DNA of 38,944 nt from Eubacteriales bacterium (GTDB lineage: Bacteria; Bacillota; Clostridia; Oscillospirales; CAG-272): positions 1 through 38,944 of the forward strand of contig JAZLEH010000172.1 in the NCBI GenBank assembly GCA_045615165.1, in the 5' to 3' direction. Under the pieces are notes generated by a model. It was not told where the DNA came from. It saw nothing but the letters and a program-made list of their open reading frames with translations, and did no database searches. This document shows positions 935-36,493 of the stretch, in pieces (the stretch's first letter is position 1; each line of letters begins with the position of its first letter). A program made the translations under genes and the position numbers.

Positions 935-2872
935 ATGCCAATGGAATTCGGCCCTCCGCCTATGCACCGCGAACGCCGTCGCCCCGAGCCTCGTCCGCGC
1001 GGAATCAAAAATTTAATACCGTATATGATAAAGCAGGTTAAAAGCTTTCTTTCAAGACTGTTTTACATAGTTTCGCTCGTGTGGGAAACCGCACCATCGA
1101 TCCTCTTCCTTATGGCACTTTTCTGCGTTCTTAACGGTGTTCTTCCCGTTATCGGCGCTTATATATCAAAGGAGCTTCTGAACGGAATCGCAGAGCTTAT
1201 CGGAGCTGATACCTCGGGTAGCCTTCGCGCCGATGTGTTTGAAACTCTTCGTCCGATACTCTTCCTTTTAACGCTTGAATTCATTTATCTTTTTGCAAAG
1301 CGTATCCTTGACAGGCTTAACGCGGGTGTGACTGCTATCGCGGGCGAGCTTGTCGTCAACCATATAAAGCTGAAGATAATCCGCAAGGCAAAGACCGTTG
1401 ACCTTTCCTCATTCGACCGCCCCGAGTTTTACGAAAAGCTTGAAAACGCCAACCGTGAAGCGGGTATGCGCCCGATAGGAATTCTCTCGGCGACCTTCAA
1501 CGTGATAAGCGCGCTTATCAGCGTTGCCTCGTTCATCGTCGTCCTTGCAACTCTCAGCCCACTCGCACCCATAATCATTATAATCACTGCGCTTCCCGGC
1601 GCGATAGTTAACTACGTATATAGGCACAGAAACTTCAGATATATGCGCCACCACTCCAAGGACAGACGAGAGATGAATTACTTCTCCGGACTTATGACGA
1701 ATAAGGACAGAGTTAAGGAGATCAAGGTTCTCGGACTTGGCGATACCTTTATTGAAAAGTACGAAAGCGCTTGGAAAAGATATTTCAAGGGGCTTAAGTC
1801 GCTCATCTTGCGTGAGAACGTGCTTCGCGTTCTCGTAAGCCTTCTTGCAACTCTTGCAAACTGCGCCCTCTTCGCCTACGTTGCGTACGATGTAGTATTC
1901 AATAACGGTATGATCGGTGACTACTCGCTTTATACGGGAGCGCTCAACTCGGTTGCATCCTACGTAACAACCCTCGTCGCATCCACCGCGACCATCTACG
2001 AGGGAACGCTCTTCATTGATAATATGATGGAGTTTATGAAGGAAGAGCCGAAGATCATCCCCTCCGTTGAAGAGCCCGCTATACCGGAGCGCGGCATCGA
2101 GCATACTATCGAATTCAAGGGCGTCGGCTTCTCATATCCCGGGTCGAGTGTTAAGGTTCTTAATAATATAAACCTTACCTTCAAGTCGGGTGAAAAGACG
2201 GTCCTCGTCGGACTTAACGGCGCGGGAAAGACGACCCTTCTGAAGCTTCTTATGCGACTTTACGATCCCACCGAAGGCTCAATACTCCTCGATGGCAGGG
2301 ATTTAAGAGAATACGATCCCGACTCGCTTTACGATATGTTCGGCACGGTCTTCCAGGACTTCGGAAGATACGCCGTCACTGCCTCTGAAAATATAGAGTT
2401 CGGAGATATAAAGAACACGCACGATCGCGCCCTCGTTGAGCGCGCCGCAAAAGCGGGTGATGCCGATCAGTTTATCGAAGCGCTCCCGAACGGCTACGAT
2501 ACCCCCTTGACGAGAATGTTTGAGGATAACGGAATCGAGCTTTCGGGCGGTCAGTGGCAGAAGCTCTCCGTTGCAAGAGCGTTCTATAAGAACTCTGATA
2601 TTTTGATCCTCGACGAGCCTACCGCATCTCTCGACGCTCTCGCAGAGCAGGAGATATTCGATCAGTTCGCAGAGCTCTCACGCGGAAAGATAAGCATCTT
2701 CGTTTCCCACCGCCTCTCAAGCGCGGTAACCGCGGATAAGATCATCGTTCTTAAGAACGGAATGGTCACTGAGGAGGGAAATCATAAGGAGCTTATGGAA
2801 AAGAGGGGAGATTACAGCCTCCTCTTCACGACTCAGGCGCACCACTACACGGGCGGCTCTGAAGTAAATTGA
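935..2872 (+). CDS. ABC transporter, fused permease/ATP-binding half-transporter (exporter type)
   Basis: 645 aa. The N-terminal half is hydrophobic and multi-helix. The C-terminal NBD has Walker A GLNGAGKTT, signature LSGGQWQK, Walker B ILILDEPTASLD and H-loop SHRL. GGGAGA Shine-Dalgarno upstream. Confidence 0.9.
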   Translation: MPMEFGPPPMHRERRRPEPRPRGIKNLIPYMIKQVKSFLSRLFYIVSLVWETAPSILFLMALFCVLNGVLPVIGAYISKELLNGIAELIGADTSGSLRADVFETLRPILFLLTLEFIYLFAKRILDRLNAGVTAIAGELVVNHIKLKIIRKAKTVDLSSFDRPEFYEKLENANREAGMRPIGILSATFNVISALISVASFIVVLATLSPLAPIIIIITALPGAIVNYVYRHRNFRYMRHHSKDRREMNYFSGLMTNKDRVKEIKVLGLGDTFIEKYESAWKRYFKGLKSLILRENVLRVLVSLLATLANCALFAYVAYDVVFNNGMIGDYSLYTGALNSVASYVTTLVASTATIYEGTLFIDNMMEFMKEEPKIIPSVEEPAIPERGIEHTIEFKGVGFSYPGSSVKVLNNINLTFKSGEKTVLVGLNGAGKTTLLKLLMRLYDPTEGSILLDGRDLREYDPDSLYDMFGTVFQDFGRYAVTASENIEFGDIKNTHDRALVERAAKAGDADQFIEALPNGYDTPLTRMFEDNGIELSGGQWQKLSVARAFYKNSDILILDEPTASLDALAEQEIFDQFAELSRGKISIFVSHRLSSAVTADKIIVLKNGMVTEEGNHKELMEKRGDYSLLFTTQAHHYTGGSEVN

Positions 2873-2907: not shown

Positions 2908-5118
2908 ATGTTTACTAAGATTACACCTATTCCCAAAAGCATTACAGGCGGCAGAAGAAAGCTTGCCATCGCATCTCTCGGCAAAGCTGATTTCAAGATC
3001 ACATCAAAGAAGCTTGACGGCACTCTTGCAAAGAATGCACTTACCGAGCTTTATAACGGACTCTCTCGCATAGTCGGCGTTCCCTGTGAATGCGCGGACG
3101 GTGCTTTGGAGATCAAGCTTGAAATTTCGGGCAGAGTTCCCGCAATGGTTGAAAAGAACGTTGATCAGGCGTATAAGATCGTTTCAAACAAGAACGGTAT
3201 CACCCTTACGGGTTACGGCGAAGCGGGCGCGTTTTATGCGGTAACGACCCTTCTTCAGACGATAACCGTTGAAAATAATATAGTATACGTTCCCGAAATG
3301 AAGATCGTCGACTATCCCGATCTCAGAACTCGCGGTCACTTCCTCGAAACCCGTTACGGCTCTAACCTTATGACCCTTGACGATTGGAAAGAGGTTATTG
3401 ACGATATGATTTCGATGAAGCATAATCAGCTTGTCGTTTCCCTTTACGGATGTTGGCAGATCCAGTACGACGGACTCATTACCGAGTACGTTTATATTCC
3501 GATCCCCAAGTATCCTCTCCTTAAGACCGACGTAGTAAAGAAATATTATTCTCCCAAAAAGGGCGGTTGGGTGAACGAGGTCGTCGAGGTTCCTATGGTA
3601 AAGGACGATTTCTTCGGTGATCTTATCGCTTACGGTAAGTCAAAGGGTGTTGAGGTTCTTCCTCTTTGGAATAGCTACGGTCATAACACCCTCATCCCGA
3701 GAATGTATCCCGAGACCGCTCCCATCGTTAACGGCGAGCCTCAGAAGGTCGGCTTCTGTGTTTCCTCTCCCAAAACCTACGAGCTTCTCTTCGATATTTA
3801 CGATCTCATCATCGATAAGTATCTTAATCCCAACGGCATTAAGTCATTCCACATCGGTCTTGACGAGGTATGGGATTCCCGCGCCGTTGACTTAGAAAAC
3901 CCCGATAAGCTTTATAGCCCCTGGTGTCAGTGCGAGGAGTGCGCAAAGCTCACAAATCAGGAAAAGACCATCAAGCACGCCTTGACTCTTATCTCTCACC
4001 TCAAATCGCGCGGAATGAAGAACATTTATCTCTATAACGACCTTCTTACGAGAATGTTTAAAGATCCCAGGATCTTCTATGAAAGACTTAAGGAAGCAGA
4101 CCTCCTTGACGTTGCGGTAGTTGACTGGTGGGGTTATACTGATATTGAAAAGAAATTCAACGAGGCAAACGTCGCTACCACGACCTTCCCCGAGCTTGGA
4201 ATCCGCTCGACCGTAAAGCCTTGGAACTCCTATTACCACTGGAACATCTCGCGTGACGCAGTAAATAATATCTTCCTTCTTACCAGAGTTGCAAACAGAG
4301 ATAAGAATACCGAGGGACTTATGTCCTATTCCGCTTGGGATAAGACCTGCGATATCAACCACGTCGCAATGGCTGACTACTCTTGGAGCTTCGCCCTCAC
4401 GGGTGAGACAGATGATTTCAGAGCGAATTACGCATACCGTAAGTTCCCAAGTCAGCCGAAGCAGGCAAAGCGCGCGTTTATGCTTTATAAGGAATTGACA
4501 AGCCAGGGAACAGACGGTAACGCTCTTCCTACTCCCGAGATGCCTTACGTTGCAAACGCAATGTTCATTAAGGATATTCTCGCATATTACGGATATTCTT
4601 ATTATCGTTACGAGCGCGATTACCCCCGTAATTTCCCCGGCGAAGCTATGCAGAAGATCTTTGAGCATCGCGCAATACTTGAGCCCAAGCTCCACGAGCT
4701 TTCCAAGCTTGCAAACGATACCTATAAGGCGTTTGAAAGCCTTAGAAACGATTTCAGCGGTGACTTTAAGCTCGCAAGACGCTATTCCGCAGAAGCTCGC
4801 AATAACCGTGATATAGTAGACGATTATATAGCTCTTCTCGAAATCGACGCTATCGTAAAGAGCGGTGATAAGGATGCCGCAAAGAAGGTAGCGAAGATCG
4901 CTTCCGTAAGACGCAAGTGCCGCCTTGAGCTTCTTGCCGAGATGGAGGACTTCAAGGAAGAGTATCTTCACGCATCTCACCTTCGTAATCAGTCGCTCTT
5001 TATGCAGGTATTCGCCGATATTGAGGCGTATGCAAAATCTACTCCCGCCGAAGAGTTCACTCTTGACGTTTGCGACCTTCGTAATATCGCAAGCGATATG
5101 ATGAACATTATGAGATAA
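2908..5118 (+). CDS. GH20-like (beta-N-acetylhexosaminidase-like) protein, class A, no signal peptide
   Basis: 736 aa with an AGGAGA Shine-Dalgarno. It has an N-terminal GH20b-like segment (GITLTGYGEAGAFYAVTTLLQ). A DYPDLRTRG...KHNQL entry into a TIM barrel follows, then FHIGLDEV, which matches the H-x-G-x-D-E catalytic pair pattern of GH20. The N-terminus is not hydrophobic. Confidence 0.65.
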   Translation: MFTKITPIPKSITGGRRKLAIASLGKADFKITSKKLDGTLAKNALTELYNGLSRIVGVPCECADGALEIKLEISGRVPAMVEKNVDQAYKIVSNKNGITLTGYGEAGAFYAVTTLLQTITVENNIVYVPEMKIVDYPDLRTRGHFLETRYGSNLMTLDDWKEVIDDMISMKHNQLVVSLYGCWQIQYDGLITEYVYIPIPKYPLLKTDVVKKYYSPKKGGWVNEVVEVPMVKDDFFGDLIAYGKSKGVEVLPLWNSYGHNTLIPRMYPETAPIVNGEPQKVGFCVSSPKTYELLFDIYDLIIDKYLNPNGIKSFHIGLDEVWDSRAVDLENPDKLYSPWCQCEECAKLTNQEKTIKHALTLISHLKSRGMKNIYLYNDLLTRMFKDPRIFYERLKEADLLDVAVVDWWGYTDIEKKFNEANVATTTFPELGIRSTVKPWNSYYHWNISRDAVNNIFLLTRVANRDKNTEGLMSYSAWDKTCDINHVAMADYSWSFALTGETDDFRANYAYRKFPSQPKQAKRAFMLYKELTSQGTDGNALPTPEMPYVANAMFIKDILAYYGYSYYRYERDYPRNFPGEAMQKIFEHRAILEPKLHELSKLANDTYKAFESLRNDFSGDFKLARRYSAEARNNRDIVDDYIALLEIDAIVKSGDKDAAKKVAKIASVRRKCRLELLAEMEDFKEEYLHASHLRNQSLFMQVFADIEAYAKSTPAEEFTLDVCDLRNIASDMMNIMR

Positions 5119-5189: not shown

Positions 5190-7400
5190 ATGCTTACTAA
5201 AATCATACCCGTACCTAAAAATCTCACGGTTGGCAGAAAAAAGCTCTCTATCGGAAGGCTCGGCTTTGCTAATTTCAAAATAACCGCAAAGAAGCTTGAC
5301 GGCACTCTTGCAAAGAACGCTCTCGCAGAGCTTTACAAGGGGCTCTCCCTTGTTGTCGGAGCTCCTGCGGAGTCAGCAGAGGGCGAGGTCTCGATCAAGC
5401 TTGAAATATCATCGCGCGTTCCCGAATGCGTAGAGAGAAATACTGATCAGGCGTATAAGATCGTAGTAAATAAGAACGGCATCACCCTTACCGGCTACGG
5501 CGAGGCAGGCGTTTACTACGCGGTTACCACGCTTTTACAGACCGTTGAGGTTGTGAATAACGAGGTTTTAGTCCCCGAGATGAAGATGATCGACTATCCC
5601 GATCTCAGAACGCGCGGTCACTTTCTTGAAACTCGCTACGGCTCAAACCTTATGACTCTTGACGATTGGAAAGAAGTCATTGACAATATGGTGTCGATGA
5701 AGCATAATCAGCTTGCCGTTTCCCTCTATGGCTGTTGGCAGATGCAGTACGACGGAATAATTTCCGAGTACGTCTATATTCCTATCCCCCAATATCCTCT
5801 TTTAAAATCCGACGTAGTTAAGAAATACTATTCACCCAAAAAGGGCGGCTGGGTAAACGAGGTCGTAGAAGTTCCTATGGTAAAGGAAGATTTCTTCGGT
5901 GAGCTTATAGCTTACGGTAAGTCAAAGGGAGTTGAGGTGTTCCCGCTTTGGAATAGCTACGGTCACAACACCCTCATCCCGAGAATGTATCCCGAGGTCG
6001 CTCCCATAGTTGACGGCGAGCCTCAAAAGGTCGGATTCTGCGTTTCCTCACCCAAAACCTACGAGCTTCTTTTCAATATTTACGACTACATAATTGATAA
6101 GTATCTTAAACCGAACGGCATCGAGTCCTTCCACATTGGTCTTGATGAGGTGCGCGACGAGCGCGGCGTCGACCTTGACGCTCCCGACAAGCTTTACACC
6201 CCCTTGTGTCAGTGCCCTGAGTGCGCAAAGCTCTCAAAGCAGGAAAAGATGATAGGTCACGCAATAAAGCTTATCTCTTACCTCAAATCACGCGGAATGT
6301 AGAACGTTTATCTCTATAACGACCTGTTCACAAGAACCTTTAAAGAGCCTTATCCGTTCTATAACGCGCTTAAGGAAGCCGATCTTCTTGACGTTGCGGT
6401 AGCCGATTGGTGGTGTTATACGGATATCGAAAAGAGAATACCGCCCGTGTATAATTTCACGACCACCTTCCCCGAGCTTGGACTCCGCTCAACGGTTAAA
6501 CCTTGGAACTCTTATTTCCATTGGAGTACTGCGCGTGATGCGGTCAAAAACATCCATATACTTTCTACCTTCGCGAATAAATTCAATAACAACGAGGGTC
6601 TTATGTCATACTCGGGATGGGACACGACCTGCGATATCAACCACGTTGCAATGGCAGATTTCTCTTGGAGCTATTCGCTTTCCGGCGACCCCGACGATTT
6701 CCGCGAGAATTACGCATACCGTCTTTTCCCGAATAACAAAAAGCTTTCAAAGCGCGCGTTTATGCTTTATAAGGAATTGACAGGGCAGGGCACTGATGCA
6801 AACGCGCTTCCGACCCCCGAGATGCCTTTCGTCGCGAATGAAGCATTCGTCAAGGATATTCTCGAGTATTATAGATATAGCTACTATCGCTTTGGCAAGG
6901 ATTACCCCCGTAACTTCCCGGGCGAAGGCGTGCAGGCAATACTCGATAATCGTGATATCCTCGAGCCCAAGCTCCACGAGCTTTCCAAGCTTGCAAACGA
7001 TACCTATAAGGCGTTCGAGCTTCTCAGAAAAGATCTCAGCGGTAATTTCAAACTTGCTAGACGCTACTCCGCGGCGGCACGCAATTACCGTGATATCGTA
7101 GACGATTATATAGCTCTTCTTGAAATTGACGCAATTGTTAAGAGCGGTGATAAGGATGCCGCAAAGAAGGTTGCAAAGATCGCTTCCGTAAGGCGTAAAT
7201 GCCGCCTTGAGCTTCTTGCCGAAATGGAAGACTTTAAGGAAGAGTACCTTCACGCATCTCACCTTCGTAACCAGTCGATCTTTATGCAGCTGTTCGCCGA
7301 TATCGAGGCGTATGCAAAAACTGCTCCAAAAGAAGAGTTTACTCTTAATATTTGCGACCTTCGCAATATAGCAAGCGATATGATGAACAATATGAGATAA
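5190..7400 (+). pseudogene. class-A GH20-like paralog interrupted by one in-frame TAG (6300..6302)
   Basis: It is collinear with 2908..5118, with the same 2211-nt length and the same AGGAGA Shine-Dalgarno. The track ORFs 5190..6302 and 6447..7400 are in the same frame. The only disruption is TAG at 6300..6302. The paralog has AAG (Lys) at the same offset, 4018..4020. Confidence 0.75.
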
Positions 7401-7425: not shown

Positions 7426-7470
7426 AAAAACAAGTGAGGTATGGATTCACTCCGTACCTCACTTGTTTTT
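7426..7470. terminator. bidirectional intrinsic terminator between convergent GH20-like genes
   Basis: Perfect 16-bp stem AAAAACAAGTGAGGTA / TACCTCACTTGTTTTT with a 13-nt loop. It has an A-tract on the left and a T-tract on the right, and sits between stop 7400 (+) and stop 7482 (-). Confidence 0.85.
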
Positions 7471-7481: not shown

Positions 7482-8888
7482 TTATGTAATTTGGTCAACG
7501 ACCTGCTTTTTCGACCAGCCCGCCTTTTCGTAATCGCCGTTCGCGTTAAATACTCTGCGCAGAATGTGCGCCGCGTAAGTCGGGGAATATCCCTTTCTTG
7601 CCGCGAGATCCTCGTAAGCTCCGATCGCAACCATCGGTATAAGCCAAGTTCCGCGCGAAAGAGTGTGCCAGGTCGTGTGAATGAAGCCGTAAAGCCCCTC
7701 GTCCTTTACCGTCTTGACGCAGGCTTCTATAACCTTGCCATTCTCATCCCAAGGGCAGAGGAGAACGTCAAATCCCGCGTTCTTAAGCGTAAGTGCCGTT
7801 TCAACGGGTGCGTTTACTGCATCGTACTGCCAGTCTGCGATAATTATATCCTTGTCTAAGTGCTCAAGCATATAGCCTTCAATTTCGGGCGTGGGCGCTT
7901 TGCAGATGTATACGTTTTCGGGGTTATACGACTTGTGCTTGTGGATGAACATATCACCCCACGCGATAGCGCGCCTGCCCTGTGCCTTAAGCTCTGCGCT
8001 CGTCTCGTTTATGAAACCGCAAATGAAATCGAGCTCTTCCTTTGTATAGGTGAATCCGTCTGCCTCGTCGCATCCGATGAGGAAATATTTGCCCTCTCCG
8101 CAAAGCTCAATAAGCTCGTTTCGCACCGCGCGGAGAAGATTTCTGACCTTTTCCTTTTCGACAGCCCAGCACCAGCCGTTTTCGGAGAAATAGGTCGCAA
8201 GCGAAATGTTCTGATCAAGCACAACGTGCTTTCCGTACATTCCTCGTGATAAGGCGGCGTGACCCCAATGGTTAAACATCGGAATAATTTCAAGCCCAAG
8301 CTCGTGCGCCTCTTTTATGATCGGGCGGATCTCGTCCTTATTGTATGCATTCTTCCATCCAAGCTCACGCATACAATCGAACTGGAGCATTCCCCAGAAT
8401 TCTATAACAACGTGCGTGAACTTTAACGCCGCAGAGAAGCGCAAGAACTTTTGCAATTCCCAAAGCTCTGTCTCGGGAAAAACGCAGAAATGGATCATTC
8501 TGTTTTTGATCAGCGCCTCGTCCCTAATTTCGGCGCAATCTATCCTTATTGCGAGTCCTTCGCTATCGTCGATAGCCTTGAATCTGTCGAGCAGGGTCAC
8601 AAAGCCTGCAAGCAAGCTCTTTTCGTCCTTAGCGTTTATCGCAACTCCGCCCTCTTCAATATTTATCGTGTATTCCGCATCGTCGAGAGCGAGTGGCTTC
8701 GCATCGCCGATAATAAAGGCGCAGTCCTTGATCTCCTTAACTTCAAGAGTCGATGCTTGACAGGAGTAGTTATACCAAAACTCCTTTATTATTTCCTTGT
8801 TGACGCAGGCGTTAGCCATAGCGCATATTTCTTTTGAAAATACGAATGCGCCGTCCTTCTTAATAAGATTACGGGGATTGAAAACCAT
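7482..8888 (-). CDS. GH20-like protein, class B, no signal peptide
   Basis: 468 aa. After an N-terminal alpha/beta-like domain comes IRDEALIKNRMIHF...KFTHVVIEFWG, then NHWGHA and FLIGCDEADGF (G-x-D-E pair). AAAGGAA Shine-Dalgarno upstream. Confidence 0.6.
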   Translation of the reverse strand: MVFNPRNLIKKDGAFVFSKEICAMANACVNKEIIKEFWYNYSCQASTLEVKEIKDCAFIIGDAKPLALDDAEYTINIEEGGVAINAKDEKSLLAGFVTLLDRFKAIDDSEGLAIRIDCAEIRDEALIKNRMIHFCVFPETELWELQKFLRFSAALKFTHVVIEFWGMLQFDCMRELGWKNAYNKDEIRPIIKEAHELGLEIIPMFNHWGHAALSRGMYGKHVVLDQNISLATYFSENGWCWAVEKEKVRNLLRAVRNELIELCGEGKYFLIGCDEADGFTYTKEELDFICGFINETSAELKAQGRRAIAWGDMFIHKHKSYNPENVYICKAPTPEIEGYMLEHLDKDIIIADWQYDAVNAPVETALTLKNAGFDVLLCPWDENGKVIEACVKTVKDEGLYGFIHTTWHTLSRGTWLIPMVAIGAYEDLAARKGYSPTYAAHILRRVFNANGDYEKAGWSKKQVVDQIT

Positions 8889-8924
8889 ACGAAATATTCC
8901 TTTCGGCTTTATCTTACTACTTGA

Positions 8925-8953
8925 ATTATACTATTTCGTTTTAAAAAACACAA
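8925..8953 (-). promoter_or_regulatory. candidate sigmaA promoter for 7482..8888
   Basis: On the minus strand: TTGTGT (8953..8948), 17-nt spacer, TATAAT (8930..8925). Confidence 0.4.
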
Positions 8954-8998
8954 GCCACTATCAAAAAAATGATTGAAAAGTCATCTATATTGAACGAA

Positions 8999-9028
8999 AT
9001 CTCCCCCTCGATGCTTCGAGGGGGAGAT
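8999..9028 (-). terminator. GC-rich hairpin downstream of 9101..10510 (possible terminator between the class-B paralogs)
   Basis: Perfect 13-bp stem ATCTCCCCCTCGA / TCGAGGGGGAGAT with a 4-nt loop. The minus-strand downstream tract is only moderately T-rich (TTCGTTC). Confidence 0.45.
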
Positions 9029-9100
9029 AAAATCCTTGAATTCACGCGCTATGAGCGCGGCTTTTCAAACAGTCCGTCGGATAACGCTCGACGTGATAAG

Positions 9101-10510
9101 CTAAACGTTCGTTATATCGTCTATCTGCTTTTTTGCCCAACCCGATTTTTCGTAGTCGCCATTCGCGTTATAAACTCTGCGCATAACGTACGCGGCGGTG
9201 TAGCTCGAATTTTTCTCACCCGTCGAAATATCCTCGTACGCGCCGATAGCAATATAAGGAATGAAACGCATTCCGCGCGAAAGCGTATGCCAAGTGGTTT
9301 GCATAAAGCCGAAGAGCTCCTCGCTTTTTATGGTTTGAACACCTACCTCGACGACCTTTGCGCTCTTGTCGCGGTGGCATAGAAGAACGTCAAAGCCTGC
9401 GTTTTTGAGGGTGACGCAGGTTTCTACGGGAGGGATAACCGCATCGTATTGCCAGTCCGCTATGATTATGCTCCTGTCGAGCCTTCCTAACATATATTTT
9501 TCATCCTCGGGGGTGGGAGCGTTGCAGGTGTATAGGTTTCCTTTGTTATAGCTCTCGTGTCTGTGAATGAACATATCGCCCCAGGCAATCGCGCGCCTGC
9601 CTTTTTTGTTAAGCTCCGCGCTTATTTCGTTTATATATTCGGTTATAAAGTCGCACTCTTCCTTTGAATAATTGAATCCGTGCGCTTCGTCGCAGCCGAT
9701 GTGGAAGTATTTGCCTTCGCCGCAAAGCTCGATAAGCTCTTCTCTTGCCAAGCGAAGGAGCTCTCTGACTTTTTTCTTTTCTATCGCCCAGCACCAGCCG
9801 TTTTTGCTGAAGTACGAAGCGAGCGAAATATTCTGATCAAGCACTACGTGCTTTCCGTGCATTTCTCGCGAGAGGGATGCGTGTCCCCAGTGGTTGAACA
9901 TCGGAACTATTTCAAGACCTAAGTCACGCGCCTCGTTAATTATCGGGCGAAGCTCGTCTTTTGAGTAAGCTTCCTTCCAGCCAAGCTCACGCATACAGTC
10001 GAATTTGAGCATTCCCCAGAATTCTATTACGACGTGCGTGAATTTAAGCGCGGCGCATAATCTTAAAAACTTCTGTAATTCCCAAAGCTCTGTTTCCGGG
10101 AAAATGCAGAAATGCGCCATTCTGTTTTTTATAAGCGCGCTGTCACGTATCTCTGCGCACTCAATCTCTATCGCAAGCTCTTCGTTGTCGTCGATTGGAT
10201 CAAACCTGTCAAGAAGCGTCATAAAGCCCGCGAGCAAGGTCTTTTCGTCCTTAGCGTTTATCGCAACGCCGCTCTCTTCAATATTTATAGTGTATTCCGC
10301 ATCGTCGAGAGCGAGTGGCTTCGCATTGCCTATAATAAATGCGTAGTCCTTGATCTCCTTAACCTCAAGCGTAGAAGCGTGGCAGGAGTAATTATACCAA
10401 AACTCCTTTAGTACATCTTTATTTATAGAAGAATTTGCTGTGGCGCATATCTCTTTTGAAAATACGAACGCGCCGTCCTTTTTTACAAGATTCGTGGGCT
10501 GAAAGATCAT
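9101..10510 (-). CDS. GH20-like protein, class B (tandem paralog of 7482..8888)
   Basis: I prefer ATG 10510 (MIFQPTNLVKKDGAFVFSKE...). It has an AAGGAG Shine-Dalgarno 5 nt upstream and aligns with the start of the paralog (MVFNPRNLIKKDGAFVFSKE). The track start at 10543 would overlap the upstream gene. Motifs: NHWGHA, FHIGCDEAHGF. Confidence 0.6.
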   Translation of the reverse strand: MIFQPTNLVKKDGAFVFSKEICATANSSINKDVLKEFWYNYSCHASTLEVKEIKDYAFIIGNAKPLALDDAEYTINIEESGVAINAKDEKTLLAGFMTLLDRFDPIDDNEELAIEIECAEIRDSALIKNRMAHFCIFPETELWELQKFLRLCAALKFTHVVIEFWGMLKFDCMRELGWKEAYSKDELRPIINEARDLGLEIVPMFNHWGHASLSREMHGKHVVLDQNISLASYFSKNGWCWAIEKKKVRELLRLAREELIELCGEGKYFHIGCDEAHGFNYSKEECDFITEYINEISAELNKKGRRAIAWGDMFIHRHESYNKGNLYTCNAPTPEDEKYMLGRLDRSIIIADWQYDAVIPPVETCVTLKNAGFDVLLCHRDKSAKVVEVGVQTIKSEELFGFMQTTWHTLSRGMRFIPYIAIGAYEDISTGEKNSSYTAAYVMRRVYNANGDYEKSGWAKKQIDDITNV

Positions 10511-10521
10511 TTTTTCTCCTT

Positions 10522-12831
10522 TTATCTTTGTACGAGAGGACATTCTATTACACAGCGATGAACCGTTGTCGGACGGTAGGAAAGGATTCTGTCGGCTTTC
10601 TTCATCGCGTCTGCAAGATTTTCCTCGGTTATATTTTCGGGAACTTCAAAGTTTGAATCAGATCCCGTATATTTGTGTCCCTCTTCGCCGCAGAGCGCGT
10701 ATTTCTTCGACCAGTCGCACGCCTTTCCGTCTGCGGGGATCCATTTATAATTTTTACCGTTAAGTTTGATGCGAGTCATATTGCTTGCGCGAAGTGCATT
10801 CGCGGGGCAGGCCTTAACGCACTTGTCGCATCCGTCACAGCATTTTGAGTCTGCGAGTCTCTTTGCTTTAACTACCTCGTCAAGCGGAGCATCGGTAACG
10901 ATCGCGATAAAATCTTGGCTGAATCCGTGCTCCTCGGTATAACACATGCCGTTAACTGTGAGCTTTCCGATTCCTGCCTCAACCGCTTCAAGCTGATTAC
11001 AGAACGCATCGGGAAGCGCTCCTCTCGGAGTTCCCATATCGCCGCCGATACCCGTCAGGTTATAGGTCGCAACCGCCTTGTAGCCCTTTCCTGCAAGATA
11101 CTTTTCAACCTTGAATGATGCGTATGCAAGCTCAAAGGTTGTCTCGTATTTTGAGTACATATAAGGGCCAACCGCAAACGCAGGGGGCTTAATAGTCATT
11201 TTCTGCACGATCTCGGGGTAGTTTATGCCCATTATGATAACGCTCTTTGCATTTTCGAGATGGTCGGTCGTTTTATATATCTTTCTCGTATATGTCTTGG
11301 AGCTTGGCTCAAAGATATGGAATCTTGGAGTTTTGGATGCCATATCAATTATCTCTTCGCCTTCTTTGATCGGAACGAGCGCCTCTGCAAGCTTATCCAT
11401 TCTTTCTGCAGGGACGATCGCGTAAATATCGCTTCCTTCCTTTTCCATTATATCACAAATGTTATCGGTAATGCAATACTTAATATTATCAATCGGCTCG
11501 TTGAGCTCGTAATACTCGTATCGCGAAAGGGGGGCGTTCGTGAGCAATACTTCGGTAATGGTAATCTCGTTTTCCTTTTTCTCGATGCCTGCCGCCGCAA
11601 GATATGCATCGGTGTCTACCTCGGGGCTATTTAGCGTCTTATAACCGTAATCGTCAATGATTCTTGCAGCGTCAAGACGTGCAAATCCCGAGAAGTGCGC
11701 AAGGGCGGTCTGCTCGGCGCTTATAGTGCCGAAGCTCTCGTTGCCGTAACCGTTTCTTGCGTTTATTTTGTCGCCCTGTGCCTGAGCTGTTTTGATGGTC
11801 GAAATAGTCATAACGACAGCGCCGTTTGCATATTCGTAGGCATCCCTTGCCCTAAGCTTTTCAATATCCTTTTTGCCGAGGAAGACTATATTGTCTACGC
11901 TATAACGGGAAACAAAATTAACCACCTCGTCGTATAATTTTCTGTGAACGGGGAGATCAAGGTTGGCAACGCAATGCTTTATTCTCATCGGTGCTGAGGT
12001 GTGCTCACCGCCGTCGCTTCTTAAATGCTTGGGGAGGCAGAATTTAACACAGCATCCCATCTCTCCGCCGCGCATACCGTATTTATCGATGTTGTCGAGT
12101 ATAACCTGTTCGTCAACTACATCGGGAATTTCAAGGTCAAGATCAAGATCAAAATGCTCAGCCCACGCGCACCGCCAGAGGTTTTTGTTCGCAAATTTAA
12201 ACACTTTGTCCTCGACCTCAATCGTCTTAACTCCGTTGCATTCCTTGCGGTAAGCATCCGTCGGGCAATGCTTAATACACTCGCCGCACATATCGCAAAG
12301 CTTGGTTTCGACATACATCGGGGTGGGGGAGGGGGGCGCGTTCGTTATTATGGATATAAATCTGTTTCTCGGGCCGTATTCGGGCGACATTGTAAGTCCG
12401 TGCCAGCCAAGTTGTCCGAGTCCTGCACAGGTTGCTGCGTATATATGTGACATATCGGGGGCAAAGGTCGCGCTAAGCTCGCCAAACGGGCGGTATCTCC
12501 AGATGTTCGATGCGGCGATCGGAACAGCCTCGTACCCGAGCCTATCAAGATAACGCGCAACCCTAAATGCTATGTAATCAAGCTTTAAATTCATAACGTA
12601 CTGAATTGAGTACGGACCTATGATCTGCGGATGCTCCTCACCGCCAAGCTCCATCGCTTCGTCAAGATGGTGAATCGCGCACACGATAACGCTCTTTGCC
12701 GTCGGCAAAATACCCTGCGGGCTCATCATTATCGGCGCGTTTTTAAATCGGGATATCGGCGCGATTCCGACGATGTCCGCACCTATTTCATAAGCGCATG
12801 CTTTAACTTTAGAAGTAAGATTTGTGTTCAT
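10522..12831 (-). CDS. fused two-module RdhA/QueG-superfamily-like iron-sulfur protein
   Basis: 769 aa. Module 1 (about residues 1-300) has CAYEIGADIVGIAP, TAKSVIV, AATCAGLGQLGWHGLTMSPEYGP, then CDMCGECIKHCP plus further Cys residues. Module 2 (about residues 470-769) has NAKSVIIMGI, EAVEAGIGKL....EEHGF, then CDGCDKCVKACP and CVIECP. There is no Tat signal and no TM helix. The stop is 11 nt upstream of the next gene's ATG. Confidence 0.6.
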   Translation of the reverse strand: MNTNLTSKVKACAYEIGADIVGIAPISRFKNAPIMMSPQGILPTAKSVIVCAIHHLDEAMELGGEEHPQIIGPYSIQYVMNLKLDYIAFRVARYLDRLGYEAVPIAASNIWRYRPFGELSATFAPDMSHIYAATCAGLGQLGWHGLTMSPEYGPRNRFISIITNAPPSPTPMYVETKLCDMCGECIKHCPTDAYRKECNGVKTIEVEDKVFKFANKNLWRCAWAEHFDLDLDLEIPDVVDEQVILDNIDKYGMRGGEMGCCVKFCLPKHLRSDGGEHTSAPMRIKHCVANLDLPVHRKLYDEVVNFVSRYSVDNIVFLGKKDIEKLRARDAYEYANGAVVMTISTIKTAQAQGDKINARNGYGNESFGTISAEQTALAHFSGFARLDAARIIDDYGYKTLNSPEVDTDAYLAAAGIEKKENEITITEVLLTNAPLSRYEYYELNEPIDNIKYCITDNICDIMEKEGSDIYAIVPAERMDKLAEALVPIKEGEEIIDMASKTPRFHIFEPSSKTYTRKIYKTTDHLENAKSVIIMGINYPEIVQKMTIKPPAFAVGPYMYSKYETTFELAYASFKVEKYLAGKGYKAVATYNLTGIGGDMGTPRGALPDAFCNQLEAVEAGIGKLTVNGMCYTEEHGFSQDFIAIVTDAPLDEVVKAKRLADSKCCDGCDKCVKACPANALRASNMTRIKLNGKNYKWIPADGKACDWSKKYALCGEEGHKYTGSDSNFEVPENITEENLADAMKKADRILSYRPTTVHRCVIECPLVQR

Positions 12832-12913
12832 TTTGAAAATTCTTCCTTTCCTTGTATAGTTATATTATACCAGTAAAAAAGAGTTGTTACAATGTTTTTT
12901 CTTTTCATAAATG

Positions 12914-12942
12914 TTGACTTTTCGTTCAACCTATGATATACT
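12914..12942 (+). promoter_or_regulatory. sigmaA-type promoter of the AraC-family gene
   Basis: TTGACT (12914..12919), 17-nt spacer, TATACT (12937..12942). It lies 30 nt upstream of ATG 12973. Confidence 0.55.
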
Positions 12943-12972
12943 CAAGCATATAAATGATTTCGGAGATAAGCT

Positions 12973-13722
12973 ATGATCTACGATTTTGAAGAGCTTTTGT
13001 TTCAAATAAAAGACGTGTGCAGGATCGATCATCCAAAGGGCACGTTTAAGGTGCGCCCAAGACCGTATGCGGCACTTTCGTACAGAGTTTCGGGGTGCGG
13101 CGATTTTATTTTCGGCGGGGAAAGAGTCGTTTCGGATGCAGGCGATATTCTTTTTATACCGGAAGGGGTTTCATACGACGTTTCCTATTCCGGCGGAACG
13201 ATGATCGTCGTTCATTTCCACGATTGCAATTACCATATTCCCGAAAATATTTCGTTTGCCAACAAAGCTTATATGGCAGACGTGTTCTTCGATCTTTTGA
13301 AGGAGTGGGAAAGCAGGCGCTCGACACACGTTGTCAAGTCCACGGTATATAGCATTATGCAGTTTTGCAGTGAATCAAATCAAAAGGAGCATTCAATTCA
13401 TTCCGCAGAGCTTGCAAAGCAGATCATAGATAACGGCTTCCGCGATTCCGAGTTCAGTGTCAACTCGCTTGTTCAAATGCTTTATACAAGCTATCCCACC
13501 TTGCGCCGCAATTTTTTAAAGCGATACGGTATGCCCCCGAAGCAATATCTTCTGAAATTGCGCCTTGATACCGCCGTCACTCTCTTGTCCGAGGGGTTTT
13601 TATCGGTTCAGGAAATTTCGAAAAGATGCGGATTTGACGATGCGCGCCATTTTTCGCAGATATTTAAGGAAAAATACGGAGTCTCGCCATCTAAAGTATC
13701 GCACAATTTATTGTTAAAATGA
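12973..13722 (+). CDS. AraC-family transcriptional regulator (cupin-like sensor + HTH)
   Basis: 249 aa. The N-terminal beta-rich region has GDILFIPEGVSY. The C-terminal dual-HTH signature is TLRRNFLKRYGMPPKQYLLKLRLDTA...VQEISKRCGFDDARHFSQIFKEKYGVSP. It is divergent from the RdhA-like/GH20-like operon. Confidence 0.9.
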   Translation: MIYDFEELLFQIKDVCRIDHPKGTFKVRPRPYAALSYRVSGCGDFIFGGERVVSDAGDILFIPEGVSYDVSYSGGTMIVVHFHDCNYHIPENISFANKAYMADVFFDLLKEWESRRSTHVVKSTVYSIMQFCSESNQKEHSIHSAELAKQIIDNGFRDSEFSVNSLVQMLYTSYPTLRRNFLKRYGMPPKQYLLKLRLDTAVTLLSEGFLSVQEISKRCGFDDARHFSQIFKEKYGVSPSKVSHNLLLK

Positions 13723-13753: not shown

Positions 13754-14251
13754 TTAAAGATCTGCTATCATTTGTGAGCGGCTGTGCTTGTCAAGCTTCT
13801 TGTAATCGGTGATAATGTATCTGTTATCATCCGAGTCGCGAACTCTGACTCTGCCGTCGGAATAAACTCTGACGTCGTGGTTTCTGTTGCGGATATCGAA
13901 TTCCTTATATCCGCGCTCGGTCTCGATCGCCCAATGAACCTTACCGTTCTTCTCGCTTACGGAATAGATCTTAAGAATATGAGGAACGAGATAATAGTCG
14001 TCAAGGCTATACTGAACTATATCGCGCGACTCCTTGTTAAGATCGGTCATATTTCTTATAACTGCGACCTCGACTCCTTCCTCGTTAAGAAGCGTTATGT
14101 AGTTATCAGCGCGGCTAACGGGGAAGAGCCTTCTCGGCTCAAGCCTTTCATAGAGGTCACCACCCTCGGTCTTAAGGTCAACGAGGTTGTTTTCGTTTAT
14201 GGTTATCGTGTCGTTTTCAGTAACGTAAAATCTTTTTGAAGGCGAACTCAT
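13754..14251 (-). CDS. DUF1854 domain protein (ABC-transporter-associated)
   Basis: 165 aa. Size, sequence character (LEPRRLFPVS....YITL.....EVAVI) and position right after an ABC ATPase/permease gene match my recollection of DUF1854. Its ATG overlaps the upstream stop as ATGA (14248..14251). Confidence 0.6.
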   Translation of the reverse strand: MSSPSKRFYVTENDTITINENNLVDLKTEGGDLYERLEPRRLFPVSRADNYITLLNEEGVEVAVIRNMTDLNKESRDIVQYSLDDYYLVPHILKIYSVSEKNGKVHWAIETERGYKEFDIRNRNHDVRVYSDGRVRVRDSDDNRYIITDYKKLDKHSRSQMIADL

Positions 14252-16569
14252 AATCTTTCCTCCTCGCGCATTTTTTCTGCATCCTGCGCCATTGACTGAA
14301 TCTGAACGAGCTTGTAATACTTGCCCTTAAGAGCCATAAGCTCCTCGGGTGAGCCGTTCTCGATGATCTTACCGTTGTCAACGACTATGATGCGGTTCGC
14401 TCTCTTAAGGGTGGAGAGTCTGTGCGCGATCATAAGGGTCGTCTTACCCTCGATAAGTCTGTCGATAGCCTCTTGGATAAGGTGCTCTGTCTCGGAGTCA
14501 ACGGCGGCGGTAGCCTCGTCGAATATAAGGATAGACGGGGATTTAAGAACCGCTCTCGCGATCGAGATCCTCTGCTTTTCACCACCGGAAACTCCGACGC
14601 CCCTCTCACCGAGAACGGTGTCGTACGAGTCGGGCTGGCGAGCGATGAATCCGTGCGCGTTCGCAATATCTGCGGCGTTGATAACGTCCTCAACCGAGGC
14701 GTTCGGATTCGAATAAGCGATGTTGTTGAATATCGTGTCGCTGAACATCATCGGCTCTTGCTGAACGTAACCGATCTGCTCACGGTATGCCGAGAGGTCA
14801 AAGTTTTTAATGTTGTGACCGTCTACGAGGATTTCTCCCGAATATCCGTCGTAGAATCTCATAAGGAGGTTGACGAGGGTCGATTTACCCGAACCTGTAG
14901 TACCTACGATACCGACGATTTCACCCGGGTTGATCGTAAGAGTAACGTCGTCAAGAACCTTTTTGGTTCTGTCAAACGAGAATCCAACGTGAAGGAACTC
15001 GATCTTACCCTCAAGCTTATCGGGAACGGTGTGTGCCTCAGCCTCATGCTCGGGCTCGGCTTCAAGTATGTCAAGAATCTTTTCGGTTGAAGCAAGCGCT
15101 CCCTGGAACGAGTCGGAGAGGTTTGCGAAGAAGGTTACGGGGTTATAGAACATTGATGCGTACGAAATGAACGCAACGATAAGACCTGCGGAATATCCGT
15201 TATCGCCGTTGATAACTCTCGTACCGCCGATTCCCCATATAATGAGCGAACCGCAGGTAACGAGGAAGGCGATGATCTGCGGGAACGCAGTCGCAAGCTT
15301 ACCGATCTTAAGGTCCATCTGAAGCCAGTCTTGATTCTTCTCCTCAAACTTATCAGCCTGTCTCTTCTCACCCGTAAAGGATTTAACTACCTTGATGCAG
15401 GGGATCGTGTCTGAGAGGGTAGAGAGAACCGCCGTGCCGCGTCTCCAGAGTCTGCGGTAATAGGGCTGGATCTTCTTTGAGAATATTCTCGTCGCAATAA
15501 CGATGAAAACGACGGGAATAAGAGAGAGAAGGGTAAGCTCGGGATTGAGCGCAAGCATTATGATTACGATACCGACGAGCTGGAAGGCGTGAACGACCGC
15601 CTCCTGCGTGATTCGGAGCATAAAGTTTTTAAGCGTAGTAGCATCACTTGAAATTCTGTTTATAACCGAACCCGTAGAGGTCTTATCGTAAAACTTCATC
15701 GGCAGGTATTGCGCTTTCAAGTAAATATCGGTACGAAGTGCAGCTATCGCCTTATCACCTGCGGTACGCATAAGATATGCGCGAATAATACCTACTCCGT
15801 ATTGGAAAAGATATGTGAACAAAAGGCAGGCGATCATCGTCATCAGCATTGTGAATTGCGATTTTCCGAATATCGTTGCGATTTTTGCAAGGATCGGCAC
15901 GCTTGCCGTTCCTCCGTCCTTCGGGAAGACTGCGTCAACGATGAATCCCGTGATCGTCGGCGGGATAAGAGATACCGCCGTGGTTATGAGTGAGAGGAAT
16001 ATACAGATGATGATCGTTTTCATCTGCGGCATTATGTATTTTGAAAGCTGTTTTACAATCTTGATCTTCGAGCGGCACATAATGCACTCTGCACCGGGGT
16101 GAAGAAGCGTTCTTCCGCACTTCGGGCAGACCGAGAGCGCGCGCTCAAAGGTGATTGCCATAATGGCAAGCTCTTCGTTTCTGTCCGCATCCTCGTTGAT
16201 GTGGTTTATGTAGAGGGCTGCCGCATCGCAAAGTGATGCGATCGCGTAAGTGTAACGGAAGAATACGACGCGCTTTCCGTCCGGCATCTTCGCCGAAAGA
16301 GTAGCGTTACCGTACATACGCTTGGAGATGACCTCGGTCATATCCTTATAAAAATAGCGCTTCTCTTCGCCGGGCACTCCGTCATAGCTGATAACGGAAT
16401 CCTCGGTGAAAATAAGCGCAGTCTCAGCGTATCTTCCCTTAAGCGACAAATCGCCGACAATGACGAAAAGAACCTTTTCGCCACCATTCTGTAAATCGTC
16501 AACGATTGGCTGAACACAACCCGGAATCTCTCTGTTTTTAAGTATAAAACTACTCATACTTAATACCAT
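14248..16569 (-). CDS. ABC transporter permease/ATP-binding protein with an N-terminal extension of about 180 aa carrying a CxxC...CxxC zinc ribbon
   Basis: The NBD has Walker A GTTGSGKST, signature VSGGEKQR and Walker B ILIFDEATAAVD. Six-helix TMD. The N-terminal soluble domain ends in CPKCGRTLLHPGAECIMC. I prefer the start at ATG 16569 (GGAG 6 nt upstream). The track ORF extends to 16590. Confidence 0.85.
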   Translation of the reverse strand: MVLSMSSFILKNREIPGCVQPIVDDLQNGGEKVLFVIVGDLSLKGRYAETALIFTEDSVISYDGVPGEEKRYFYKDMTEVISKRMYGNATLSAKMPDGKRVVFFRYTYAIASLCDAAALYINHINEDADRNEELAIMAITFERALSVCPKCGRTLLHPGAECIMCRSKIKIVKQLSKYIMPQMKTIIICIFLSLITTAVSLIPPTITGFIVDAVFPKDGGTASVPILAKIATIFGKSQFTMLMTMIACLLFTYLFQYGVGIIRAYLMRTAGDKAIAALRTDIYLKAQYLPMKFYDKTSTGSVINRISSDATTLKNFMLRITQEAVVHAFQLVGIVIIMLALNPELTLLSLIPVVFIVIATRIFSKKIQPYYRRLWRRGTAVLSTLSDTIPCIKVVKSFTGEKRQADKFEEKNQDWLQMDLKIGKLATAFPQIIAFLVTCGSLIIWGIGGTRVINGDNGYSAGLIVAFISYASMFYNPVTFFANLSDSFQGALASTEKILDILEAEPEHEAEAHTVPDKLEGKIEFLHVGFSFDRTKKVLDDVTLTINPGEIVGIVGTTGSGKSTLVNLLMRFYDGYSGEILVDGHNIKNFDLSAYREQIGYVQQEPMMFSDTIFNNIAYSNPNASVEDVINAADIANAHGFIARQPDSYDTVLGERGVGVSGGEKQRISIARAVLKSPSILIFDEATAAVDSETEHLIQEAIDRLIEGKTTLMIAHRLSTLKRANRIIVVDNGKIIENGSPEELMALKGKYYKLVQIQSMAQDAEKMREEERL

Positions 16570-16677
16570 ACCTTTCTCCGTATGCTTCATCCGGAGCGCC
16601 GTTTTTATAGGGCGACTACCGAAGCTTTATTATCCCCATACCCGTGTAAAATGTTTACGCGTGTGATTGGTTACCTC

Positions 16678-19287: not shown

Positions 19288-19455
19288 TTACTCCTCAACA
19301 GGTGCTCCAACGGGGCAGGACTCTGCGCAGTTTCCGCAGCTGATGCACTCGTCAGCGTTGATAACGTAGATATCGCCTTCGGAAATGCAGGATACGGGGC
19401 ATTCGGATGCGCAAGCGCCGCAAGCGATGCAATCTTCAGTAATCTTGTATGCCAT
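19288..19455 (-). CDS. fdx: clostridial-type 2x[4Fe-4S] ferredoxin (55 aa), not in the ORF track
   Basis: My manual reverse-complement translation gives MAYKITEDCIACGACASECPVSCISEGDIYVINADECISCGNCAESCPVGAPVEE*. It contains two CxxCxxCxxxCP motifs. A GGAGG Shine-Dalgarno lies 8 nt upstream of ATG 19455. The gene has its own promoter and terminator. Confidence 0.9.
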   Translation of the reverse strand: MAYKITEDCIACGACASECPVSCISEGDIYVINADECISCGNCAESCPVGAPVEE

Positions 19456-31054: not shown

Positions 31055-31057
31055 GCC

Positions 31058-34408: not shown

Positions 34409-34418
34409 TTCATTCACC

Positions 34419-35498: not shown

Positions 35499-35536
35499 AT
35501 AAACCTCCAAAAAATGCTTAAATTTTATCCTCTGTA

Positions 35537-35565: not shown

Positions 35566-35614
35566 CTATAATAAAACCATCAAAAAATATAACAAATCAA
35601 ACTTGGAGTGAAAA

Positions 35615-36460: not shown

Positions 36461-36493
36461 TCGATACTCCATATATATTTATCTATTTTCGGG

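Follow-up and report, generated by a model that had tools for sequence, protein, structure and literature searches.

Why should a gene of the RdhA/QueG class of B12-dependent enzymes lie 11 nt upstream of a glycoside hydrolase (GH) gene, and opposite a divergent AraC-type regulator? This question is raised by contig JAZLEH010000172.1 of an Eubacteriales bacterium (assembly GCA_045615165.1; Oscillospirales, CAG-272). The analyzed stretch of 38,944 nt (hereafter, the window) encodes, at positions 7482 to 13722 (locus 1), the regulator AraC1, a predicted cytoplasmic tandem-module RdhA/QueG-superfamily protein of 769 amino acids (aa), termed RDH2x, and two divergent GH20 proteins, GH20B_2 and its paralog GH20B_1. 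To our knowledge, just two chemistries, dehalogenation and epoxyqueuosine reduction, are established for the RdhA/QueG B12 class. Metagenome surveys routinely count all homologs of this class as dehalogenases. The parts of locus 1 come from known superfamilies and its regulatory layout is conventional; no description of the RDH2x family, of its regulator and operator, or of a linkage between RdhA/QueG proteins and glycosidases was found in the literature. The comparative analysis presented here points to inducible glycan catabolism as the link between reductase and glycosidase, a link that is facultative and not specific for GH20.

The open reading frames (ORFs) of locus 1 have the coordinates originally assigned to them. 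RDH2x (10522..12831), GH20B_2 (9101..10510; 469 aa) and GH20B_1 (7482..8888; 468 aa) are encoded on the minus strand, and AraC1 (12973..13722; 249 aa) on the plus strand. The reported 11-nt spacing between RDH2x and GH20B_2 was also borne out: the TAA stop codon at 10524-10522 is followed by the junction AAGGAGAAAAA (10511..10521, minus strand), which provides a ribosome-binding site for GH20B_2, and by the ATG codon at 10510. This junction shows no significant secondary structure (z = 0.31), and neither a terminator nor a promoter is evident in its sequence. Downstream of GH20B_2, a terminator-like hairpin (8999..9028, minus strand) with a 13-bp G+C-rich stem, followed by AUUUCGUU, has a folding energy (dG) of -28.1 kcal/mol (z = -6.7; 0 of 200 shuffles equally stable) and likely marks the end of the RDH2x-GH20B_2 transcript. 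The 212-nt spacer between the two GH20B genes thus contains both this hairpin and a promoter-like TTGTGT-17-TATAAT sequence (8953-8925, minus strand), and GH20B_1 is therefore read as a separate transcription unit. A bidirectional terminator hairpin is predicted 3' of GH20B_1 (7426..7470; 20-bp stem with flanking T/A runs; dG -27.1 kcal/mol, z = -7.7). The original prediction had both GH20-like genes in one operon with the reductase gene, which holds for GH20B_2 and fails for its paralog. On the other side of RDH2x, the 141-nt divergent control region (12832..12972) carries the predicted araC promoter, TTGACT-17-TATACT at 12914-12942 (plus strand), together with a cargo promoter, TTGTAA-17-TATAAT at 12892-12864 (minus strand), so the described divergence of AraC1 is confirmed. 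By sequence and comparison, locus 1 thus comprises a bicistronic RDH2x-GH20B_2 unit, divergent from AraC1 and ending at a strong hairpin. A metagenomic contig (L172) has the same gene order and is 95.4% identical to the window over 22.3 kb.

Within the control region, a putative AraC operator, TGAACGAAAAGTCAAC (12913..12928, minus strand; family consensus TGAnnnAAAAGTCCACCtTTTTGA), overlaps the araC -35 element and precedes the cargo -35 element by about 20 nt. AraC1 orthologs are found divergent from RDH2x or GH20B in the cassettes of clade A, and all 24 of the 24 clade A intergenic regions contain a common block, TATAnCA-N5-6-TGAnnnAAAAGTCCACCtTTTTGA...AAAAA..GGTT (also written as TGAnnnAAAAGTCCACC and as the pattern TGANNNAAAAGTCCACC), with near 2-bit conservation at most of its 18 positions in 23 aligned cassettes. 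The opposite strand of this block carries the araC -35 (TGGACT/TTGACT) and an extended -10, indicating that the putative operator overlaps the regulator's own promoter and abuts a weak cargo -35; on sequence grounds, such a layout is the one classically used by the AraC family for autoregulation plus activation. The distance from the operator core to the cargo start codon is constant (84-95 nt) in most cassettes, with RDH2x, GH20B or a GH89-like gene as the first cargo. When the 38.9-kb window was scanned, the operator pattern was matched with 0 mismatches at 12913-12928 (minus strand) and with 1 mismatch to the degenerate pattern at 8970-8985 (plus strand), with no other match at one mismatch or fewer. 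The latter site (TGATTGAAAAGTCATC) repeats the operator core in inverted orientation, about 20 nt 5' of the -35 element of the GH20B_1 promoter, suggesting that GH20B_1 probably belongs to the AraC1 regulon. The 10-mer common to both promoter regions of locus 1 is marginal alone and became convincing after phylogenetic footprinting and the window-wide scan; of the 35 intergenic occurrences of the core AAAA(G/A)TCCAC(C/T) in about 2 Mb of retrieved DNA, 31 are in the cassette position. The cassette and regulon architecture of locus 1, as read here, is considered highly probable.

AraC1, of the AraC/XylS family, joins an N-terminal cupin sensor to a C-terminal HTH_18 domain (Pfam: HTH_18, 71.9 bits; HTH_AraC, 46.9 bits; AraC_binding, 21.3 bits against a cutoff of 21.1). 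Like AraC, RhaS/RhaR and ChbR, it combines a cupin sensor with two HTH motifs and a divergent target, and its putative operator overlaps its own promoter and abuts the target -35. Unlike in these systems, the operator sequence and the effector of AraC1 are undescribed, and one regulator lineage serves interchangeable cargo. In more than 20 species, the cargo of the promoter-operator block is GH20B alone, RDH2x alone, both genes in either order, GH20B with RDHa-RDHc (RdhA-like proteins also encoded at locus 2 of the window, 29795..38944), or a GH89-like gene with GH20B and RDH2x. Identities of up to 62% connect the AraC proteins of GH20B-only cassettes with those of RDH2x-only cassettes (e.g., L014 versus L149, L012 versus L106), and the AraC subclade of the window (bootstrap 96%) includes both RDH2x-only (L003, L006, L019) and RDH2x-GH20B (window, L002) cargo. 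GH20B-only and RDHa-RDHc-GH20B cassettes are found in a second AraC clade (bootstrap 96%) with the related core AAAAATCCACC. The distant RDH2x cassettes L027-L060, from Faecousia and related Oscillospiraceae, have an AraC clade of their own (99%) and a different block, TGTCAAC...TTTTTTACGAAAA...TTTGTCCC, which is presumably another operator. The interleaving of cargo types among the AraC proteins rests on pairwise identities and on the common operator, not on tree topology, and suggests that one AraC lineage and one conserved promoter-operator block drive interchangeable cargo genes.

To place locus 1 in a wider genomic context, about 170 related loci were compared, among them RDH2x homologs in 80 species-representative genomes (1.07 Mb of flanks with 788 called genes) and 80 metagenomic loci containing GH20B. 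The nearest species-level relatives are uncultured Eubacteriales, Clostridia and Oscillospiraceae metagenome-assembled genomes (MAGs), many of them from ruminant gut. The immediate upstream neighbor of RDH2x is a divergent AraC gene in about 36 loci and a co-directional IclR gene in 19 loci, and the downstream gene is mostly convergent and unrelated; the conserved partner of RDH2x is thus its regulator (AraC or IclR), not GH20. Divergent AraC genes are also present in about 30 GH20B loci. The IclR gene takes the place of AraC directly upstream of RDH2x, in the same direction and with gaps of -8 to 86 nt, in Clostridia, Spirochaetes, Phycisphaerae and other phyla (L011, L016, L018, L020, L021, L023-L026, L045, L056, L058, L063, L066, L068, L069, L073).

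Where RdhA-like and GH20B genes share a neighborhood, they are in 7 of 7 cases closely packed into one co-directional operon, with 11-31 nt between the genes (named loci: the window and its strain contig L172, counted as one, and L002, L005, L010, L055, L086, L087, L144). Two RdhA-like types and four gene orders are represented: RDH2x-GH20B, GH20B-RDH2x, GH20B-RDHa-RDHc and RDHa-RDHc-GH20B. On the GH20B side, the pairings are with RDH2x in L086 and as GH20B-RDHa-RDHc and RDHa-RDHc-GH20B in L087 and L144, respectively; in L055, an RDHa-RDHc-GH20B set lies 2 kb from an RDH2x cassette. The RDH2x flanks contain four GH20B genes, each abutting an RdhA-like gene, for which random placement within these flanks gives (144/708)^4, or ~2e-3, prior to any consideration of strand and spacing. 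The initial claim of a functional link rather than chance adjacency therefore stands insofar as the genes are linked beyond chance (7/7 operonic, P ~2e-3); it needs to be qualified in that the link is facultative (3/76 RDH2x loci, 3/64 GH20B loci) and not GH20-specific. Most genomes have the reductase without a dedicated glycosidase, which argues for cooperating options and not for an obligate pair.

Other glycan-related genes recur beside RDH2x. Partner proteins of about 760 aa in L010 and L015 are homologs of NAGLU/GH89-like alpha-N-acetylglucosaminidases: in L010, an AraC gene is divergent from a GH89-like - GH20B - RDH2x - unknown gene series with the same operator as the window cassette, and in L015 the GH89-like gene follows RDH2x. 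An Armatimonadia MAG (L074) has a GH95 gene 34 nt after RDH2x, and in L052, L054 and L061, RDH2x is accompanied by YesM/YesN-type two-component and CUT1 sugar ABC transporter genes. A Pfam census of the 47 co-directional RDH2x neighbors returned BPD_transp_1 (four), GH20 (three), NAGLU (two), GH95 (one) and GH113 (one), the remainder being heterogeneous. The clearest sugar-uptake context for the family is that of L054 (205..12068), where co-directional genes encode a YesN-type regulator, a YesM-type kinase, RDH2x, two CUT1 permeases, a protein of about 505 aa (without a Pfam match but likely a solute-binding protein) and another RDH2x paralog (34% identical). From these genomic contexts, it appears probable that RDH2x belongs to glycan or sugar catabolism. 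Two further kinds of neighbors were recorded. A family of 650- to 775-aa proteins with no Pfam hit recurs by RDH2x in L010 (12506..14464, 196 nt downstream), L029 (1479..3806, 147 nt upstream) and L013 (352..2640), and pairs of a pyruvate formate-lyase (PFL)-like glycyl radical enzyme and its activase are located 1-7 kb from RDH2x in L004, L005, L008, L013, L026, L036 and L041, usually as a separate unit ending beside the AraC gene.

RDH2x itself is composed of an N module (aa 1-290), a middle domain of 150 aa (approximately 300-455) and a C module (455-769), the two modules being 27.5% identical to each other. In a profile search against the PDB, both halves matched PceA and QueG, and the AlphaFold model (pLDDT 78.5, pTM 0.87) gave NpRdhA (4RAS, top), PceA and QueG as its sole significant Foldseek matches (E 6e-10 to 1e-5), at TM-scores of just 0.25-0.28. 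In the predicted model, a nitroreductase-like corrinoid-binding core is followed by a two-cluster ferredoxin domain, as is characteristic of the superfamily, and Fer4 motifs are located at aa 172-221 and 662-689. The cysteine pattern CxxCxxCxxxCP...C...CxxxCP is invariant in both modules (seven invariant Cys in each), and the N module conserves PIASSNIWRYR, FAPDMSHIYAA, PEYGxRNRF and NKNLWRCAWGEHFDLDLDL in homologs from 100% down to 37% identity. R157 of the N module is invariant and aligned with the catalytic R305 of PceA; the equivalent position of the C module is Arg in distant homologs and Asp (D640) or Gly in the clade of the window, suggesting one catalytic and one diverging module. RDH2x scored 73.6 bits against the RDH model TIGR02486 (curated cutoff 160.35) and 41.4 bits against the QueG model TIGR00276 (cutoff 200), with a weak match to DUF1730 besides. 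Its N terminus, MNTNLTSKVKACAYEIGADIVGIA, contains no RR motif of a twin-arginine translocation (Tat) leader, no RdhB anchor gene is adjacent (its neighbors being AraC1 and GH20B_2), a HEAT-repeat C-terminal domain was not seen by Pfam or in the model, and the DYH motif is not among the invariant columns. RDH2x is, by its predicted fold and its motifs, a member of the class III cobalamin/Fe-S superfamily and, by these scores and absences, of neither of its characterized families. Corrinoid dependence of the protein is considered probable. The family, present in five or more phyla, comprises 266 clusters at 50% identity (E <= 1e-30); full-length tandem proteins make up about 45 of the top 150. 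An origin of RDH2x as a fusion of RDHa-like and RDHc-like proteins was ruled out, since RDHa, RDHb and RDHc all resemble the N module (27-30% identity) more than the C module.

Cytosolic RdhA enzymes have a tandem-core architecture, in which the extra core of NpRdhA is vestigial and cofactor-free (PMC12219181); the diverging C module of RDH2x is reminiscent of such a core. Like NpRdhA (4RAS/6ZY1) and BhbA, RDH2x exceeds 700 aa and has two nitroreductase-like cobalamin-core modules and a ferredoxin-type Fe-S domain without Tat or RdhB. It differs from the vestigial core of NpRdhA in that both modules keep the full set of seven invariant Cys, and from NpRdhA and BhbA in its 150-aa middle domain, the absence of an NAD(P)H reductase domain, a score below the RDH cutoff, and glycosidases and sugar transporters as partners. 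With respiratory RdhA (PceA 4UQU, 8Q4H), it shares the AGLGxxG...PEYGxxxR...CxxCxxCxxxCP core and the R157/R305 alignment, whereas the Tat leader, RdhB anchor and RdhC/K/T accessory genes are lacking and the module is tandemly duplicated. QueG (5D08, 5D6S) has the same class III B12/2x[4Fe-4S] scaffold; in contrast to QueG, RDH2x is without HEAT and DYH, falls below the cutoff, and is inducible rather than housekeeping in its predicted regulation. The class III enzyme QueG reductively cleaves a C-O bond (of an epoxide), so the superfamily is not limited to C-halogen bonds (PMC4646009), making a non-halide substrate of RDH2x chemically plausible.

The two GH20B proteins have a sequence identity of 76% and reach 36.8 and 34.7 bits (GH20B_2, 34.7) against Pfam GH20 (PF00728; gathering threshold 22.3) but stay slightly below the cutoff for the N-terminal GH20b domain (23.4 and 24.9 versus 26.1). 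The predicted model (pLDDT 77), with a GH20b-like N domain and a TIM barrel, matches full two-domain GH20 enzymes, both hexosaminidases and lacto-N-biosidases, at Foldseek TMq of 0.58-0.62. The catalytic Asp-Glu pair of the GH20 motif H-x-G-x-D-E, which goes with a substrate-assisted mechanism in this family, is present as HIGCDE in GH20B_2 and LIGCDE in GH20B_1, and G272-C273-D274-E275-A276 is invariant in 15-16 homologs down to 35% identity. Modeling thus supports a genuine GH20 fold with an intact Asp-Glu pair. Like TrdeGH20 (9FYL), LnbB (4H04), the B. fragilis enzyme 4PYS and S. pneumoniae GH20C, GH20B has the two-domain fold and the HxGxDE pair. TrdeGH20, an enzyme releasing N-acetyllactosamine/lacto-N-biose (LacNAc/LNB), is the closest solved sequence and also has the DW(Q/H)YD motif of GH20B. 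Unlike the solved GH20s, GH20B is only ~15-20% identical to any of them, its GH20b domain is below the Pfam cutoff, and it has no NCBIfam hit. No signal peptide was found in the locus 1 proteins, and both GH20B enzymes are predicted to be cytoplasmic.

On balance, and with moderate confidence, locus 1 is read as an inducible catabolic cassette, on the chromosome of an uncultured, Oscillospiraceae-like member of the gut Clostridia, in which an AraC switch controls a hexosaminidase-type glycosidase and a corrinoid/Fe-S reductase acting on a sugar-derived molecule. AraC1 would sense a sugar-derived effector via its cupin domain and bind TGAACGAAAAGTCAAC, regulating itself via the overlap with its own -35 and activating the cargo from just upstream of the weak cargo -35; GH20B_1 would probably join the regulon via the inverted operator copy. 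In the cytoplasm, GH20B might trim an imported glycoside, releasing a terminal beta-N-acetylhexosaminyl (beta-HexNAc) unit or a disaccharide that contains HexNAc. Low-potential electrons of the ferredoxin type would pass along the Fe-S chain of RDH2x to the corrinoid of the N module, and a small sugar-derived molecule would then undergo two-electron reductive cleavage or elimination, with the glycosidase as an optional front end to the reductase. The alternation of GH89-like (alpha) and GH20 (beta) HexNAc-ases suggests a common product, possibly a modified N-acylhexosamine or metabolite, as a more economical guess at the substrate than a common aglycone. More tentatively, RDH2x together with RDHa, RDHb and RDHc may represent a new branch of the superfamily, whose substrate in the gut-anaerobe cytoplasm would derive from an amino sugar and undergo non-halide reductive C-O or C-N cleavage. 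Candidate reactions would strip off an ether, hydroxyl or N-acyl group by which the hexosaminidase or downstream catabolism is blocked.

Several observations weigh against the reading of locus 1 as a catabolic cassette. GH20B adjoins RDH2x in 3 of the 76 informative loci (downstream in L002, upstream in L005 and L010), namely in 3/17 of the close clade (>=81% identity) and in 0/~55 distant loci, and RdhA-like genes adjoin GH20B in 3/64; no co-directional non-regulator neighbor of RDH2x is present in 48/71 loci, and many neighbors are unrelated. Partner GH families vary by lineage, so that no single substrate is implied. The internal branches of the clade A AraC tree are poorly supported in the bootstrap, and the conserved putative operator is in part just the araC -35/-10. 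RDH2x is far under the NCBIfam cutoffs for both RDH and QueG, and has seven and not eight invariant Cys per module; no residue could be assigned as its active-site Tyr (PceA Y246/QueG Y101), for which Y113 and Y131 are invariant candidates. Neither a cobalamin riboswitch nor another RNA was found in the window by an Rfam scan, and no cobamide genes were identified among the annotated genes.

In a rival reading, the genes have accreted without a common function, RdhA-like and GH20B genes having been joined in a GH-rich accessory island by the shuffling of cassettes of one AraC gene and one cargo gene, the prevalent kind in these genomes. RDH2x and GH20B genes mostly stand alone with a regulator, neighboring genes are of mixed kinds (among them glycyl radical enzymes, V-ATPase and peptidases), the flanks are very rich in AraC genes (67 copies in 46 loci), and seven GH20-like genes in a 39-kb window raise the chance of adjacency. 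However, accretion does not readily account for seven of seven co-occurrences being tight co-directional operons in four orders and with two RdhA-like types, for a regulator lineage and operator common to the cargo types, for the recurrence of a second HexNAc-ase family (GH89-like) in the same operons, or for sugar transporter and GH95 partners in other lineages, and it is regarded as unlikely. Distinctly unlikely, too, is a role of RDH2x as a non-respiratory, catabolic dehalogenase, like NpRdhA or BhbA, by which natural organohalides are reductively detoxified or exploited, with glycosidases that are unrelated or that deglycosylate halogenated glycosides. While NpRdhA (4RAS, 6ZY1) and PceA are its best structural matches, the N module invariably has the counterpart of PceA R305, the tandem-core protein is predicted to be cytoplasmic like cytosolic RdhAs, and regulators of the IclR and AraC types typify aromatic catabolism, those matches reach TM-scores of only 0.25-0.28 and the TIGR02486 score is 73.6 bits against a cutoff of 160. 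The recurrent partners are, moreover, glycoside hydrolases and sugar ABC systems instead of aromatic-degradation genes, an NAD(P)H-flavin reductase is neither fused nor adjacent to RDH2x, and the family shows enrichment in MAGs from ruminant and other guts.

The cysteine count and the lost C-module Arg in the clade of the window bear on a further reading, in which RDH2x has lost its corrinoid site and serves nearby anaerobic enzymes as a multi-cluster Fe-S protein for electron transfer or maturation. RDH2x is predicted to carry up to four Fe-S clusters, each module lacks one of the canonical eight Cys, and glycyl radical enzyme pairs are nearby in seven loci. This reading is nevertheless judged very unlikely, given that non-cluster N-module motifs (PIASSNIWRYR, FAPDMSHIYAA, PEYGxRNRF) are strongly conserved to 37% identity, as for a substrate or cofactor pocket, and that a single gene with a ligand-sensing regulator of its own typically encodes a catabolic enzyme. 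A QueG paralog acting in queuosine/epoxyqueuosine metabolism or salvage is highly improbable: some databases name RDH2x homologs "epoxyqueuosine reductase," and weak QueG and DUF1730 matches exist, but the TIGR00276 score is 41 bits against 200, the HEAT-repeat C-terminal domain is absent, the D-Y-H motif was not identified, and inducible regulators with GH/ABC partners are unlike a housekeeping tRNA modification.

If the more tentative reading of a new reductase branch is true, it would represent a B12-dependent step of glycan breakdown not described before, switched by an AraC/operator system with interchangeable glycosidase cargo. The regulators and neighbors of RDH2x, a family abundant in ruminant gut MAGs, point to sugar/glycan catabolism; confirmation of such a role would extend anaerobic glycan degradation by a new type of reaction and correct "organohalide" annotations in gut datasets. 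AraC1 and TGAnnnAAAAGTCCACC would then also constitute a ready inducible regulator-operator pair for substrate-finding reporter screens. One regulator lineage with swappable enzyme cargo makes a tidy example of catabolic operon assembly.

At the other end of the window, locus 2 had been thought to repeat the logic of locus 1. Its minus-strand operon (29795..35498) encodes RDHc (34419..35498, 359 aa; corrected ATG at 35498 with a GGAGG ribosome-binding site), RDHb (33506..34408, 300 aa; corrected ATG at 34408, 10 nt past the RDHc stop), RDHa (32532..33509), a beta-lactamase-fold protein (31058..32539) and a Gfo/Idh/MocA protein (29795..31054); the corrected RDHc and RDHb lengths agree with those of orthologs. 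The regulator AraC2 (35615..36460, plus strand) is divergent from RDHc, belongs to another AraC clade (~23% identity to AraC1) and is without the TCCACC operator. Two tandem GH20C genes, 36554..38182 and the partial 38196..>38944, which leaves the window end (83% identical to the former), are downstream on the AraC2 strand, have a TTGACA-17-TATAAT promoter of their own and are not co-operonic with the RdhA-like genes. The RDHc-RDHb-RDHa triplet is highly conserved and abundant, being found at >=80% identity in hundreds of contigs, and no GH20 gene was found within 9 kb of it in the orthologous loci L161-L171. L164-L167 hold the gene string of the window, with divergent AraC, beta-lactamase-fold and Gfo/Idh/MocA genes, and L168 has divergent AraC, cupin, two Gfo/Idh/MocA, ABC permease and radical SAM/SPASM genes. 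The presumed repetition was thus not upheld: the GH20C-free orthologs indicate that locus 2 is a separate, also sugar-flavored system and that the proximity of GH20C is specific to this genome. Among solved relatives, the Gfo/Idh/MocA protein of the window is nearest to DgpA-type sugar C3 oxidoreductases, which match better than GH109, and a GH109 identity was ruled out. In L161 and L164, the orthologous operons have an extra gene of 320-331 aa upstream of RDHc that is absent from the window, and the 277-aa ORF at 38094..38927 (minus strand) is an antisense shadow of the GH20C gene at 38196.

The window is a chromosomal stretch, in which the two loci are separated by the housekeeping genes holB, PSP1/yaaT, rsmI, metG, tatD and eno. 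The five RdhA-like modules originally counted in the window were recovered, and its seven GH20-like genes are reached only by including the partial gene at 38196 and by taking 5190..7397 as one stop-interrupted gene. The latter, a class-A GH20-like paralog on the plus strand, is a single frame divided by an in-frame TAG at 6300-6302 into ORFs of 370 and 317 aa, and its product is 80% identical to that of 2908..5118. Since the counterpart in the 95%-identical contig L172 is intact (736 aa, with Lys at the TAG position), it would be a pseudogene or a sequencing error. A gene for a 55-aa 2x[4Fe-4S] ferredoxin (19288..19455, minus strand), also called in L172, lies between the PSP1 and methyltransferase genes; it is a possible low-potential electron donor, though in a housekeeping context. 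The GH20-rich region is bordered by fused ABC exporter-type genes at 13754..16590 (minus strand) and 935..2872 (plus strand), one of which has a DUF1854 gene after it and converges on AraC1.

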